Shown one piece after another: positions 381-18,514 of a DNA stretch of 31,498 bases. Position 1 is the stretch's first letter; the number at the start of each line of letters is the position of its first letter. The position numbers and the translations under genes were made by a program. The notes beneath the pieces are model-generated. The model ran no database searches, was not told the origin of the DNA, and saw only the letters and a program-made list of their open reading frames with translations. Source of the DNA: an uncultured Opitutia bacterium (GTDB lineage Bacteria > Verrucomicrobiota > Verrucomicrobiia > Opitutales > UBA953); contig CAIVYX010000008.1 in the NCBI GenBank assembly GCA_903910245.1, positions 1-31,498 on the forward strand. The letters are read 5' to 3'.

Positions 381-3300
381 ATGCGCCTCGCTGCCTCCCT
401 CAGCCTATCCGTCGCTTTATTCGCGGCACTCGGCGCCGAGGTGAAGCCTTTCAGATGGTCAGGCCAGCTCAACGTCCCTGACCCCACCTCCTGTACGCTC
501 GATGAGGCGGGTAACGTCTACGTGGCGTCTACGACGCGACGGAAAGCCGGCGACCTCGATATCCGCGAGCATTCCATATGGATTCCCGACGACGTCGGCC
601 TGACTTCCCCTCAAGAGAAGCTGGCGTTCTTTCAGCGTGAACTGGCGCCCGGCAAGTTGAAGGCCCCGCGCGGCGGACTCAAGGACCACAACAAGGATGG
701 TTCGATCGACTGGAATGACCTCACGGTCCCGAAGGAGACTATCTATAAGCTCAGCGACTCCGATCGTGACGGTGTCGCTGACAAAATCACGATTTTCGCG
801 GACGGCTTCAACTCGCCCATCTCCGGCATCGCCGCTGGGGTCATGTACTTCGATGGCTGGGTCTACGTCACCGCCATCCCCGACGTCTGGCGTCTCAAGG
901 ATACCGACGGTGACGGCGTGGCCGACGTGAAGGAACTCGTCGCCACGGGTTTCGGCAGCCACATCGCCTACGCCGGCCATGACATGCACGGCCTGCGCCT
1001 CGGCCCAGACGGCCGCATTTATTGGAGCATCGGTGACAAAGGATTAAACGTCACCAGTAAGGAAGGAAAGAAGTTCACCTATCCCCACCAAGGTGCCGTC
1101 GTTCGATGTGAGCCCGACGGAACGAATTTCGAGGTCTTCGCTCACGGCGTGCGCAACATTCAGGAGATCGCCTTCGACGATTTAGGTAACATCATCGGGG
1201 TCGACAACGATGCCGACCAACCCAAGGAGCGGGAGCGCCTTGTCTATTTACTCGAAGGCTCCGACTCTGGCTGGCGCAATCAACATCAATACCAGAAGAG
1301 CGAAAGTCGTTGGATCAAGGAAAGTATGTGGATGCCGAAAGGTGCGGCCGACCAGCCGCTCTTCATCACCCCGCCGATCGCCAACTACTCAGACGGTCCT
1401 GCCGGCTTCCTGCGCGAACCTGGCCACGCCCTGGACGGCGACCTCCGTGGCCGATTCTTTCTCGATCAGTTCCCAAAGGGTAAGATGGACGCCTTTACCT
1501 TGGAAACCGATCAAGATTCTTTCCGCCAGACCAACCTCCAAGTCGTCACCAGCGGCATCATGGGCATCGGCATGGCCTGGGGCACCGACGGTCGCGCCTA
1601 CTTCGCCGACTGGATCGGCGGCTACCCGCTCGACGGCAAAGGTGCGATCTGGCGCTTCGACGTGGCTCCGAACATCGACAAGACGTCCGAGCAGATTCTG
1701 TCCAAGCCCTTTTCGGTCGCCGTCCCCAAGGACGAACTGCTGGGGCTGCTAGGTCATCGCGATCAACGCGTGCGTGTGAATGCTTCGATTCGTCTCGATC
1801 GCCTAGGAGCCTGGGATGACATGCTCGCCTTGGCCAAGAAACCAGAGGCCACCCGCTTCGCCCGCATCCACGCCATCTGGGGTTACGGCATGGGCGTTCG
1901 TCTCGGCAAGGTCGCCGACGTGACCGCGTCATTGGCCTTGCTCGACGACGCCGACAGCGAGATCCGCGTCCAGGCGCTTAAGGTACTGAGCGAGACCAAG
2001 CCGAACGGCCACCTTATCGCCAAGGCCGCCGACCAGCTCGCCCACAAAGATTTCCGTGTTCGCATCCAGGCCGGGCTTACCTTGGGCAAACTGGGCGGCA
2101 AAGTCCCGTTCGACGCCTTCCTTCAGGACCCCGATGCTGACCTCATCCTGCCTTGGCTTCGTCACGGCCTGGTCAGCGGACTCGCCGGCACGCAATCAGC
2201 AGAAGAACTCTTGGCTCAAGCCCAATCCGAATCTGGTGCCAAGGCCACTTTCGCTACGCTGGCGCTCGTTCGGCAGAAATCTCCCTTGCTCGGGAAACTC
2301 CTCCATCACGCCAACCCCGATGTCGTCAATGAAGCCGCCCGGGCGATCCATGACGATAAAGGGATCCCTGCCGCCGTTGGCGCCCTAGCCTCAGCCTTCG
2401 GGCGACCCACGCTGCCTTTGCAGGCGGCCCGGCGCGCTCTTAACGCCAATTTGCGCCAAGGCGACGAAGCCGCCCTATCCCGACTTCTGGAATGGACGCT
2501 GAAGCAGCCGGAAGGCGCTCCGCTCCGCAGCGAAGCATTTAAGGCCTTACTGGCCTTCGACCAGCCTCCGGACCTCGACCTCGTCGACGGTACTGCGAAG
2601 CAGTATGCGGCTCGCGACAAGGCCACGATCGCCCGCGTCCTTCAGTTCCGCCAGGCCGACCTGCTCTTGCTCCAGAAACCTGCGGAACGCGCCGCCGTCC
2701 TCGAGCTGATGGTGAAATATGAGTTGGACCTGCCCTTCCCGATCCTCCTCGCGCTGGCGGAAGACCTCAAAGCTGCTCCCGGGGTCCGCCTGCAGACGTT
2801 GCGCCTGCTTGGACGCAAGTCCATTGAACCCGCCGCGATCATCCGCACGCTCCGCTCTGCCGCGGGTGAAGGTAATCCCTCCGAGGTCCGGATCGAAGTT
2901 GTCGACCAGCTCTTTTATCGGGATGCGACCGCGGCCTTGGAAGTCGCTCGCCTAATCATCGATTCAAAGTCGGCCAAGATCCCCGAGAAACAGGCCGTGG
3001 TGGCCGCGCTCCGCGGCCGCAATGATGCCAGCTCGGTCAAGCTCTTGCAGGAACTCGTGGACCGCCTTGCCGTTCGCAAGCTCGACGCCGGCCTTAAGTT
3101 GGATGTCTACATACTCGCCCGCGAATCTAGTTCGGCCGATGTCGCCGCTGCGCTCAAGAAGTACCTCGCCGTCACTCCTAAAGGTGGCTTGAAGATGGCC
3201 TCGCCCGAGATTCCCTACGAACTCCTCACCGAGGGCGGTGACGTGACCCGTGGCAAAGCCATCATTAACGGCCATCTCAGCGCCAATTGTATCGCCTGCC

Positions 3301-16536: not shown

Positions 16537-16974
16537 TCAACGTCCGAGCATCCCTACCCCCTCACGAACGAGGTCGGCGATACGCTCCTTGGACAGTAAG
16601 CTGGCTTGCGCATCAGAGATTACAAGAAACGAGCCCAGCACCCTGCCGCTCCGGTCCACCAAGGTCAGGCGAAGCGAAACCTTGCCGACGGGAATGCCGG
16701 CGCTCACCGGACGCGCGTACCAAGCGGCGTACAGGATCGCATCCGCTCCGGCCGGCTCCGTGGCCGCCACATATCCGCGGGACTGGAGCACCCGGACCGA
16801 TGTGTCATGGATGACGTCGCCGCAAAGGGCGAGGGCTGGCGAGGGGGCGCCGATGGCTTCCTGGACATAGACGCTTCGCACCAGGACAGGCGGGGCGTCC
16901 GGACCGACGCAGCCGGCCAGACCGAGCACAAGGCAGCCCAGTAAGCGGCGGGTCACCTGCCTGAATCGGTGCAT
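16537..16974 (-). CDS. Putative lipoprotein (145 aa), possibly DUF4136-like fold
   Basis: Basic N-terminus, hydrophobic stretch and lipobox LAGC (MHRFRQVTRRLLGCLVLGLAGC). LQSRGYV...ADAIL...LRLTLVDRSG pattern. Start set at ATG 16974. Confidence 0.6.
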   Translation of the reverse strand: MHRFRQVTRRLLGCLVLGLAGCVGPDAPPVLVRSVYVQEAIGAPSPALALCGDVIHDTSVRVLQSRGYVAATEPAGADAILYAAWYARPVSAGIPVGKVSLRLTLVDRSGRVLGSFLVISDAQASLLSKERIADLVREGVGMLGR

Positions 16975-17008
16975 AACTTGTTTATTACCCGTTCTCGCTC
17001 CGGGACAA
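16975..17008 (-). promoter_or_regulatory. Putative leaderless promoter for the lipoprotein gene
   Basis: Minus strand: TCCCTGC-TTGTCC-15 nt-TAATAA-7 nt-ATG. Confidence 0.45.
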
Positions 17009-17029
17009 GCAGGGACATGATGGGACCTG

Positions 17030-17065
17030 TTGACCTTTGGGGTCAGCAACACTCCCCTTCACGCA
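17030..17065 (+). promoter_or_regulatory. Putative leaderless promoter for the HAD-DciA fusion
   Basis: TTGACC at 17030 lies 36 nt before ATG 17066. The -10 position (TCCCCT) is weak. No Shine-Dalgarno. Confidence 0.45.
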
Positions 17066-18121
17066 ATGGCCCGCGTCCAAGCCGTCACCTTCGACCTAGC
17101 AGGCACCCTGCTCTTCCCGCACCCCTCGGTCGGTGCCGTGTATGCGGCCTGTGCGAAGCGACATGGCATCGAAATTGAAGCCGCCGTCCTGGACGCGTCA
17201 TTCCCGCTGGCGCTCAAGGGCGGCCCGAAGAACGCCAAGCCCGAAGTATTCTGGAAGGAAGTCGTCCAGCGTTGCTTTGGCCCAGCGCTTCCAGCTTCCA
17301 AGATCGATCCGGTCTTCAAGGAGTGCTGGGACGCGTTCGCTCGACCAGAATCCTGGCGTATGGCTGCTGGTTCGCTCCAGGCGATTTCCGCTATCCGTTT
17401 CCTCGGCGTGAAAGTCGGGGTACTTTCCAACGCGGATGCTCGCATGCGTAACGTGCTCGAAGGCCATGGGCTGACGCGACACCTGGATGGCATCTTCCTG
17501 TCCGGAGAATCCGGACACTCCAAGCCTGACCCTAAGGCTTTTGGTCAGGCTGCCCGTGCGCTCGGCAGCTCGGTCTCCGGCTTGGTGCACTTCGGCGACA
17601 GTCCGACGGAAGACGGCGAAGGGGCCCGGGATGCTGGAGCCACCGGAGTGGTCGTCGGCGGTGCGCATGCGCCGGATCGCTGCCTGCGCAACGAGAAGAT
17701 TTCCGAATCACCCTACGCGATTCGGGCCTTGCTCACCGAAGGTAAGCTCAAGGGGAAGTTTTCGCGTACCGTGCAGAACCTTTTGGCGAACCTCCGCGGC
17801 CTGCCTGAAGACCGCGGTCGCTCCACTGACCGCGCGATGAAGACAATCGACGACGCGGTGCTCGATGCCTTCAAGAAGCTCCGACTGGACAAACCCGTAC
17901 CGGAGACGGCCATCGTGGCCCATTGGCTGGAACTACTCCCGCTCAAGCTGGCCAGACGTTCCGCCCCGCTCCGCGTGCTCGAAGGCGGCAAACTCGTCGT
18001 CCAATGCGAGAACTCCGTGATTAAATCGGAAATCCGCTTCCACGAGCGGGCGATGCTGGCCAAGATTAGGCTGCTGCGCGGATGTCAGGAGGTCAGGACG
18101 ATCAGCTTCGTGAACGCCTGA
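17066..18121 (+). CDS. dciA: Fusion protein: N-terminal HAD-IA (REG-2/HDHD3-like) hydrolase plus C-terminal DciA/DUF721-like domain (351 aa)
   Basis: HAD motifs I VTFDLAGTL, II VLSN, III SKP, IV FGDSPTEDGEGA. From about 17753 the sequence reads KFSRTVQNLLANLRGLP...AIVAHWLELL...LARRSAP...GKLVVQCENSVIKSEIRFHERAMLAKIR...GCQEVRTISF, the DUF721 pattern W-x3-(V/L)...L-V-(V/I)...S-x3-(S/Q)-E-(L/I). There is no internal stop. Confidence 0.75.
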   Translation: MARVQAVTFDLAGTLLFPHPSVGAVYAACAKRHGIEIEAAVLDASFPLALKGGPKNAKPEVFWKEVVQRCFGPALPASKIDPVFKECWDAFARPESWRMAAGSLQAISAIRFLGVKVGVLSNADARMRNVLEGHGLTRHLDGIFLSGESGHSKPDPKAFGQAARALGSSVSGLVHFGDSPTEDGEGARDAGATGVVVGGAHAPDRCLRNEKISESPYAIRALLTEGKLKGKFSRTVQNLLANLRGLPEDRGRSTDRAMKTIDDAVLDAFKKLRLDKPVPETAIVAHWLELLPLKLARRSAPLRVLEGGKLVVQCENSVIKSEIRFHERAMLAKIRLLRGCQEVRTISFVNA

Positions 18122-18514
18122 TCAGTTCGACATTGGCTCGAAGGGCTTCTGGAATACGTCCTTAAATTCGTAGACTTCCTTGAAGTCCTCAAGATTGTCC
18201 TCGGGCGAGCGACCGAACATTCCGGTCTCGATGATATTAAAGACGATGTTGCCGACGTCGGCCGACTTCCGGAGACCCCAGTTATGGAGGAGCGGATAAG
18301 ACATCGGACCGTAGGTTTCGAGCACGTGCTGACGGAACCCTTCGAGTAACTGCGGACCGCTGACGTGCCGGTTCGTAGTACTCTTGCCCTTCTTCGGTTC
18401 ACCGTGCGTAAGCTTCTGGGCGAGGTCGAGCCCGAGACGAACCACGTCATAAGCCTGGGGCTGATAACGGGGGTCCTTCTGGCGGATGATGCGGACAGCT
18501 TCGTCGAAATCCAT
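18122..18514 (-). CDS. Minf_1886-family (Planctomycetes/Verrucomicrobia-restricted, TIGR04138-like) protein of unknown function
   Basis: DPRYQPQAYDVVRLGL, RHVSGPQLLEGFR, YGPM...WG, DVGNIVFNIIE, DNLEDF. Confidence 0.85.
   Translation of the reverse strand: MDFDEAVRIIRQKDPRYQPQAYDVVRLGLDLAQKLTHGEPKKGKSTTNRHVSGPQLLEGFRQHVLETYGPMSYPLLHNWGLRKSADVGNIVFNIIETGMFGRSPEDNLEDFKEVYEFKDVFQKPFEPMSN

Follow-up and report, generated by a model that had tools for sequence, protein, structure and literature searches.

A haloacid dehalogenase-type hydrolase joined in frame to the DciA protein in Opitutales: architecture, origin from neighbouring genes and probable functions of the two halves

The HAD-DciA gene and its distribution

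In the genome of an uncultured Opitutia bacterium (NCBI GenBank assembly GCA_903910245.1; GTDB lineage Verrucomicrobiota; Verrucomicrobiia; Opitutales; UBA953), a hydrolase of the haloacid dehalogenase (HAD) superfamily and the DciA (DUF721) protein are encoded by one gene. The window, that is the whole stretch of DNA analysed, comprises positions 1 to 31,498 of contig CAIVYX010000008.1 (31,498 nucleotides). The HAD-DciA gene lies at 17066–18121 of the plus strand and represents one open reading frame (ORF) without interruption, starting with ATG at 17066 and containing 351 codons and a stop codon, the latter included in the coordinates. An alternative upstream start, TTG at 17030, would give a product of 363 residues; the homologues have mostly 351. 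The junction of the two halves reads ...LLTEGKLKG-KFSRTVQNLLANLRGLP... and, in a longer form, ...IRALLTEGKLKG-KFSRTVQNLLANLRGLPEDRGRS...; the frame is open throughout, and a stop codon, a start codon and a change of frame are all absent from it.

The same architecture was found in more than 100 clusters during a search of 5.8 billion proteins (the clusters were counted at 90% identity), with identities of 45–95% and with most of the proteins having exactly 351 residues. A scan of species-representative genomes was evaluated by the best 80 loci returned; all of these are fused, at least 75 are full length, and identities range from 57 to 97%. Because the architecture recurs in more than 100 clusters and in at least 75 full-length genome loci, chance and assembly error are excluded, and the in-frame fusion proposed in a first-pass annotation, which was made from the sequence without database searches, is confirmed as real. 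The fused loci belong to metagenome-assembled genomes of lakes and rivers, whose labels read Opitutae, Opitutales or Verrucomicrobiota (UBA953 and BS8 are examples). Every longer protein found with this type of DciA proved to be a HAD fusion. The same annotation had allowed for the fusion being common and already annotated. Common it is, in one clade, and it is present in public databases, but its entries there bear unspecific names ('DUF721 domain-containing protein', 'HAD-IA family hydrolase', 'putative hydrolase of the HAD superfamily'), while the architecture itself is undescribed.

Structure of the two halves

The N-terminal half, residues 1–225 (17066–17740, plus strand, as are all features of the gene given below), is a HAD-IA hydrolase domain with a helical cap, similar to REG-2 and HDHD3. 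The Pfam profile PF00702 (HAD) matches residues 5–191 with E 2.8e-19. The best NCBIfam family is the REG-2-like TIGR02252, matched over its full length (residues 5–195 to profile positions 1–202) with 131.2 bits, below the curated cut-off of 155.2 bits; judged by these scores, this family is the nearest relative of the domain, which is not a certified member of it. The best solved relative, by profile (E 1.2e-32) as well as by fold, is human HDHD3 (3k1z), with an identity of 27%. In the AlphaFold2 (AF2) model, the predicted local distance difference test (pLDDT) values of the HAD part are mostly above 90, being 84–89 over residues 191–220 and 58 over residues 221–230. Two long HAD ORFs of 394 and 436 residues (genomes G202 and G222) were considered as possible fusions of another kind and rejected: they contain no second Pfam domain and probably have over-called starts in GC-rich DNA.

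All four HAD catalytic motifs that had been noticed at first pass (the nucleophile Asp, Ser/Thr, Lys and the acidic pair) are present. Motif I, D10-L-A-G-T14 (17093–17107), retains the nucleophile Asp and has a small residue at the Asp+2 position; motif II is S121-N122 (17426–17431), motif III is K153-P154 (17522–17527), and motif IV, G177-D178-x4-D183 (17594–17614), is the acidic metal-binding motif of HAD enzymes. Residues D10, G13, T14, S121, K153, P154, G177 and D183 are invariant in sets of 54 and of 102 fused proteins, and N122 and D178 are each conserved in 100 of the 102. Since the catalytic residues are invariant or nearly so, the enzyme looks active, as far as this can be predicted.

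Position 12 of motif I is occupied by A, V, S or T in the 102 fused proteins and never by Asp, and unfused orthologues have D-x-[AGTV]-G-T, likewise never with Asp at +2. The Asp that serves as the general acid/base of HAD phosphatases and mutases is missing from this position, and, because of its constant absence, the domain is, to judge from its motifs, not a classical DxDxT phosphomonoesterase. The missing general acid at Asp+2 speaks against an ordinary phosphomonoesterase and favours substrates with good leaving groups or other chemistry; a small residue at this place resembles the motifs of phosphonatases and dehalogenases. The lack of the second Asp had been compared at first pass with REG-2-like enzymes, and this comparison agrees with both the best NCBIfam family and the best structure.

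The C-terminal half, residues 231–351, is a complete group-I DciA, in which a lasso helix at the N-terminus is followed by a disordered linker and then by a KH-like domain. The lasso helix motif, K231–P247 (KFSRTVQNLLANLRGLP; 17756–17806), is the presumed DnaB-binding element; the helix itself spans residues 234–243 in the full-length AF2 model and residues 6–16 in a model of the DciA domain. The linker between the lasso and the KH-like domain occupies residues 248–260 (17807–17845; pLDDT below 50 over residues 244–258), and the KH-like domain residues 261–351 (17846–18118). The Pfam profile of DciA, PF05258, matches residues 264–348 with E 3.6e-12 and 46.8 bits versus a cut-off of 24, covering positions 5–89 of 89; the score is 49.8 bits for the C-terminal part alone and 49.9 bits in a whole-genome scan. 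The assignment of this part to DUF721 at first pass thus agrees with the profile, and also with the fold. A profile built from DciA sequences matches PDB entry 7ykm ('DciA DUF721 domain') with E 3.8e-5. In the AF2 model of the domain, pLDDT is about 90 over the KH part, and Foldseek places D. radiodurans DciA 7ykm first (template modelling score 0.73, root-mean-square deviation 2.2 Å), V. cholerae DciA from its complex with DnaB (8a3v) next, then DnaA domain I and RbfA. The predicted structure therefore has the KH-like fold, similar to DnaA domain I, that is characteristic of DciA.

The last 123 residues can be aligned over the whole length of the stand-alone DciAs of 122–123 residues from related genomes. 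The N-terminus of the latter, M-[KRH]-F-x-R-x-[VI]-E-N-L-I-A-N-[LF]-R-[GS]-L-P, is the same motif as residues 231–247, so that the KFSRxVxNLLANLRGLP motif on the DciA side of the junction corresponds to the extreme N-terminus of the stand-alone proteins; it is also the N-terminal extension that had been ascribed at first pass to stand-alone Opitutae DUF721 proteins. Between the halves remains only the tether GKLKG, residues 226–230 (17741–17755), which occupies the place where the ancestor had a stop codon, a spacer and a start codon. In another genus of the same family (g2; L017:1489-2676:+, L014:1686-2858:+, L015:2085-3395:-), the fused protein has about 395 residues because an insert of some 45 residues separates the lasso helix from the KH domain, and its tether between HAD and lasso is unlike that of the window's genus in sequence. 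In two further genomes, DciA forms the C-terminus of ORFs of 741 and 349 residues (L122:551-2776:+ in G033 and L123:1333-2382:+ in G125), which contain no other Pfam domain; either their N-terminal extension is very long or the start was over-called.

The position of the lasso motif bears on an explanation in which no true fusion protein exists, an error having erased a stop codon or DciA being made separately by internal initiation or by cleavage of the tether. The disordered tether could indeed be accessible to proteases, and in-frame GTG (V236) and TTG (L240) codons are present. However, these two are the sole codons of their kind, no ATG is available, and both fall inside the conserved lasso motif, which a start at either of them would truncate; an internal start was rejected on these grounds. 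Moreover, more than 100 independent assemblies, at identities of 45–97%, have the open junction in common, all fused lineages inspected have G, H or Y at the place of the ancestral ATG, and no other dciA was found in the sister genomes. Against this evidence, such an explanation is extremely unlikely.

Origin from neighbouring genes

The relation between the two genes was studied in 141 sampled genomes of the order, which were searched separately with each half, the coordinates being cross-matched by script. A DciA match was obtained in 123 of the genomes, a HAD orthologue (E<=1e-12) in 65 and both in 61. Among the 61, the two are fused in 7 genomes of two families (f1 and f11), while in 31 genomes from 11 families HAD stands directly upstream of dciA on the same strand. 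In 4 genomes, each from a different family, they share a contig at a distance of 1.5–20 kb, and in 19 genomes (8 families) they are on different contigs. Fused and directly adjacent pairs together make up 38 of the 61, across 13 families. The distance from the HAD stop to the dciA start is from –4 to +36 bp in 9 of 10 inspected unfused loci and 109 bp in the tenth.

These data show that the fusion came from a merger of neighbouring genes, a possibility which the first-pass annotation had put forward as an alternative. Genome streamlining, named there as the cause, is not supported, the pairing being present also in genomes of 3–8 Mb within the order. Among the genomes sampled from the other orders of the class, 36 have both genes, and none of these has dciA within 5 kb of HAD; the HAD-dciA pairing is therefore a trait of this order, Opitutales.

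In a tree built from the concatenated halves, all fusions of family f1, from both of its genera and from metagenomic sequences, form one clade (Shimodaira–Hasegawa-like approximate likelihood ratio test 97). The fusion of genome G010 groups with unfused pairs, and for this reason the fusion probably arose twice, in the ancestor of the freshwater family f1 and in a second lineage represented by G010. The junction sequences differ among the three fused groups. The second origin is, however, not forced by well-supported branches. The fusion is confined to family f1 and the G010/P0122 lineage. Six more genomes (G137, G021, G163, G179, G087 and G065), suggested as carriers of the fusion by the length of an open frame, were rejected: the separate searches gave separate open frames for HAD and DciA in G137, G021, G087 and G065, and inspection of ORFs revealed separate adjacent genes in G137, G021, G163 and G179.

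The genes flanking HAD-dciA differ from family to family while the pair stays. A larger conserved operon was sought in the flanks and none was found, so that the flanks gave no hint on function. By eye, a glycosyltransferase or an ABC transporter was recognized upstream of the pair in some families, and genes seemingly corresponding to rpsO (S15) and pnp (PNPase) were recognized 3' of it in several families (L020, L021, L007, L008 and L022), at varying distances and not always on the same strand.

In the window, the HAD-DciA gene is alone on its strand, having a divergent neighbour upstream and a convergent one downstream. The former is a small ORF at 16537–17052 (minus strand) without a Pfam or NCBIfam match, whose position is kept in G030; it likely has a lipoprotein signal (...LVLGLAGC..., by eye) if started at an internal ATG (16974). 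Beyond it, nadB and a panE-like gene follow. The convergent gene at 18122–18514 (minus strand) encodes a Minf_1886 family protein (TIGR04138, a conserved hypothetical of Planctomycetes/Verrucomicrobia) and is followed by hisC; its stop codon abuts that of the HAD-DciA gene with a spacer of 0 bp, and the same is observed in G030. A scan of positions 16850–18300 for promoters and terminators found none.

Functions of the halves and comparison with known systems

PF05258 gives one match each in the window's genome and in three other fusion-bearing genomes, G030, G082 and G010, which are 99%, 98% and 96% complete, respectively. The DnaB helicase was found in both genomes searched for it, G000 and G030. 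With the DnaC/IstB profile PF01695, the only matches above the cut-off, obtained in four genomes, were in fact to the AAA+ domain of DnaA; the search did not include DnaI_N and phage-type loaders. Thus, the question raised at first pass of a second dciA or a dnaC was answered in favour of a sole DciA in G030, G082 and G010. As the lineage's only DciA, accompanied by DnaB and by no DnaC or DnaI that could be found, the fused protein is inferred to be the replicative-helicase loader of the lineage. It should be taken into account, against this, that the window's own genome is 61% complete and that the statement about a sole DciA relies on sister genomes. A different situation was observed in another family of the class, f46 (G215, G225, G234, G250, G258, G266, G282, G289, G295 and others), whose genomes of 2.2–2.8 Mb are 98–99% complete: PF05258 gives no match above the cut-off there and a below-cut-off match in 1 of 10 genomes, the loader of this family being unidentified with this model.

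The terminal extensions of group I and group II DciAs constitute a DnaB-binding 'lasso' (PMC13501899), and 94% of verrucomicrobial DciAs belong to 'group 1', in which the extension precedes the domain (Blaine et al. 2022, bioRxiv 10.1101/2022.01.24.477630). The lasso of DciA proteins comprises one or two helices and binds the LH-DH module of DnaB. By analogy with these data, residues 231–247 of the fusion would bind DnaB.

The gene context of HAD orthologues outside the order gives a lead on the function of the hydrolase. There, in 32 of 52 genomes, belonging to 9 families, folC is the immediate upstream neighbour of HAD on the same strand, with gaps between matches of 39–141 bp. In two genomes, the FolC gene (TIGR01499) overlaps that of HAD: at the stop in G285 (L120:3225-4592:-, HAD 2551-3225), and also in G258 (L121:3207-4583:-, HAD 2543-3283). 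In G224, folC and HAD are a single ORF for a FolC-HAD protein of 627 residues (L118:2867-4753:-). Within the order, in G191, where HAD (L012:1489-2163:+) does not adjoin dciA, its stop is overlapped by 4 bp by a pabB/trpE-like gene of a chorismate-utilising enzyme (L012:2160-3398:+), for which aminodeoxychorismate synthase and anthranilate synthase are alternatives, the scores being below the NCBIfam cut-offs; if pabB, it is a second folate-related neighbour of HAD. Since folC is the gene directly preceding the orthologue in many of these genomes and FolC is fused to it in one, the HAD domain is probably a folate-linked phosphohydrolase.

Removal of the last phosphate of dihydroneopterin phosphate was attributed to an unidentified non-specific phosphatase, and the gene of the pyrophosphatase was at that time still lacking in most genomes (De Crecy-Lagard et al. 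2007, PMC1971073). No HAD candidate for pterin dephosphorylation was found in the literature. Dephosphorylation of dihydroneopterin phosphates is a candidate role of the enzyme discussed here. For folate-pathway phosphohydrolases of this kind there is no curated family, FolQ/NudB being Nudix proteins. Several points weigh against the folate assignment. It comes from gene context only; within the order, folC never adjoins HAD; orthology of the HADs across orders was defined by single best hits and a shared motif signature and not by a rooted tree; and, according to the literature search, human HDHD3 and REG-2-like members have no assigned substrate.

The same context is relevant to the earlier idea that the HAD is a house-cleaning nucleotidase, delivered by DciA to clear non-canonical nucleotides at the replication fork. 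Some HAD-IA enzymes are nucleotidases, a tether to a replisome protein fits such a role, and there are weak partial matches to models of YjjG-type pyrimidine nucleotidases (TIGR02254 over residues 98–197, E 1.2e-7, far below the cut-off). The best family and structure matches, however, are REG-2/HDHD3-like, the Asp+2 general acid of HAD phosphomonoesterases is absent from the whole orthologue group, and the orthologues are surrounded by folC and the pabB/trpE-like gene rather than by genes of nucleotide metabolism. In addition, according to the literature consulted, DciA acts in helicase loading, and a role at the moving fork is not described there. The nucleotide sanitising suggested by the first-pass annotation is consequently very improbable: nothing links this HAD to nucleotides, and its orthologues elsewhere are partners of folC.

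The full-length AF2 model consists of two globular parts, residues 1–225 and 261–351, with pLDDT mostly above 90 (about 67 over residues 261–280), joined by residues 226–258 with pLDDT below 50, the short helix at 234–243 included. The overall predicted template modelling score of 0.62 gives no confident packing of the domains against each other. In the fused clade, the tether between the last helix of HAD and the lasso has 5–8 residues and varies in sequence, and in length by up to 3 residues, unlike the lasso, which is conserved. Because the tether is short, variable and disordered, confident packing is absent and about half of the DciA-bearing genomes have no HAD, a passenger fusion of operon partners is most likely the best reading.

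In our opinion, there is a good chance that the protein is made of two modules that originated from merged, translationally coupled neighbours and act independently, one half being the loader and the other its folate-linked HAD passenger. In Opitutales, the HAD gene became the upstream operon partner of dciA, and the two were fused when the stop codon of the former and the start codon of the latter disappeared. According to this proposal, the fused DciA would bind DnaB via its lasso and load it at the origin, as other DciAs do, while the N-terminal HAD would act as a phosphohydrolase of the folate pathway. The fusion would fix co-expression at a ratio of 1:1, and the hydrolase would ride as a passenger to the DnaB ring. 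It counts against independence of the modules that long retention of the pair with changing flanks, together with recurrent fusion, is expected also from selection for interaction.

Such selection is assumed when the halves are thought to be functionally coupled, the catalytic or ligand state of HAD (cap open or closed) controlling access of the lasso to DnaB. In another form of this explanation, it is the folate-linked enzyme that is brought to the replisome and enriched there by the loader. In either form, loading would be tied to the supply of one-carbon units and thymidine monophosphate (dTMP). By an established principle, interaction is predicted from conserved gene pairs and from fusions, and this pair is kept with changing flanks in 13 families, whose DciA parts are 25–46% identical to that of the window. 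The probable double origin of the fusion, the catalytic residues that remain invariant after it and the constant shortness of the tether, which places HAD directly against the DnaB-binding helix, also agree with coupling. On the other hand, HAD is missing in about half of the genomes that have DciA (65 versus 123 of the 141), is separated from dciA by location on another contig in 19 genomes and is never linked to it outside the order; the tether is not conserved in sequence, the model shows no confident inter-domain packing, and tight operons fuse easily without functional meaning. Coupling is thus rather unlikely. Still less probable is its most specific form, in which the HAD is the missing verrucomicrobial dihydroneopterin-phosphate phosphohydrolase, recruited in Opitutales as a regulatory head whose cap closure gates the binding of DciA to DnaB; if it were true, replication would start only while the synthesis of folate and dTMP runs.

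Most bacteria use DciA as the loader of their replicative helicase, and the way in which it works is still under study. Here, the sole loader of an entire clade has a 25-kDa enzyme attached to the N-terminus of its presumed DnaB-binding lasso, and this may be considered a natural experiment. In such a protein, the lasso of group I must have its N-terminus directed away from the surface of DnaB, and this constrains the chain direction and the binding mode of N-terminal lassos, a question raised in PMC13501899. A link between metabolism and replication becomes directly testable through the HAD-dciA operon, which extends across the order and has been fused recurrently, and the folC-HAD pairing nominates a candidate for a step of folate synthesis without an assigned gene. 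Should the fusion be no more than an accident of the operon, its value is limited to annotation, in which the fused proteins are to be named DciA fusions rather than 'HAD hydrolase'.

Summarizing the comparison with known systems, the HAD-DciA architecture is made of two known families, populous and clade-wide, and is undescribed in the literature searched. Among approximately 26,000 DciAs, 99.7% are single-domain; 38 rare variants were listed and 8 more came from a wider search, with thioredoxin, PDZ-peptidase, YspA, RecF/SMC-N, DNA polymerase III gamma/tau, GyrB, TPR and aminomethyltransferase as partners (Blaine et al. 2022). A HAD partner (hydrolase, haloacid, PF00702 or PF13419) is not mentioned in the text of that work, and no paper joining DciA with haloacid dehalogenase was found in the literature searched, in line with the statement at first pass that no described fusion of this kind was known. 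As in those variants, a lineage-specific second domain is added to DciA, and some of the partners reported there, for example GyrB, also look like the products of neighbour-gene fusion. Unlike them, as they mostly comprise 1–36 proteins, HAD-DciA fills a whole family-level clade.

With the stand-alone group-I DciAs of Opitutales and with 7ykm and 8a3v, the fusion shares the same KH-like domain by profile and fold; it also has the lasso motif of the stand-alone Opitutales proteins and, like them, is presumably the sole DnaB loader in the absence of DnaC and DnaI. It differs from stand-alone DciA, whose lasso begins at residue 2–3, in carrying a 225-residue enzyme attached to the lasso N-terminus via a tether of 5–8 residues. 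V. cholerae DciA belongs to group II and has its lasso at the C-terminus, unlike the N-terminal lasso of the fusion. The hydrolase half resembles REG-2-like HAD-IA proteins and HDHD3 in core fold, cap and the lack of Asp at motif I +2 and differs from them in its partners, being either a fusion to DciA or the product of a gene paired with dciA or folC. The closest parallel in gene organization is provided by the FolC-HAD fusion and the folC-HAD pairs of other orders, which have HADs of the same orthologue group with motif I D-x-[AG]-G-T, translationally coupled to an operon partner and occasionally fused to it; the partner there is FolC and is located upstream, whereas here it is DciA, located downstream.

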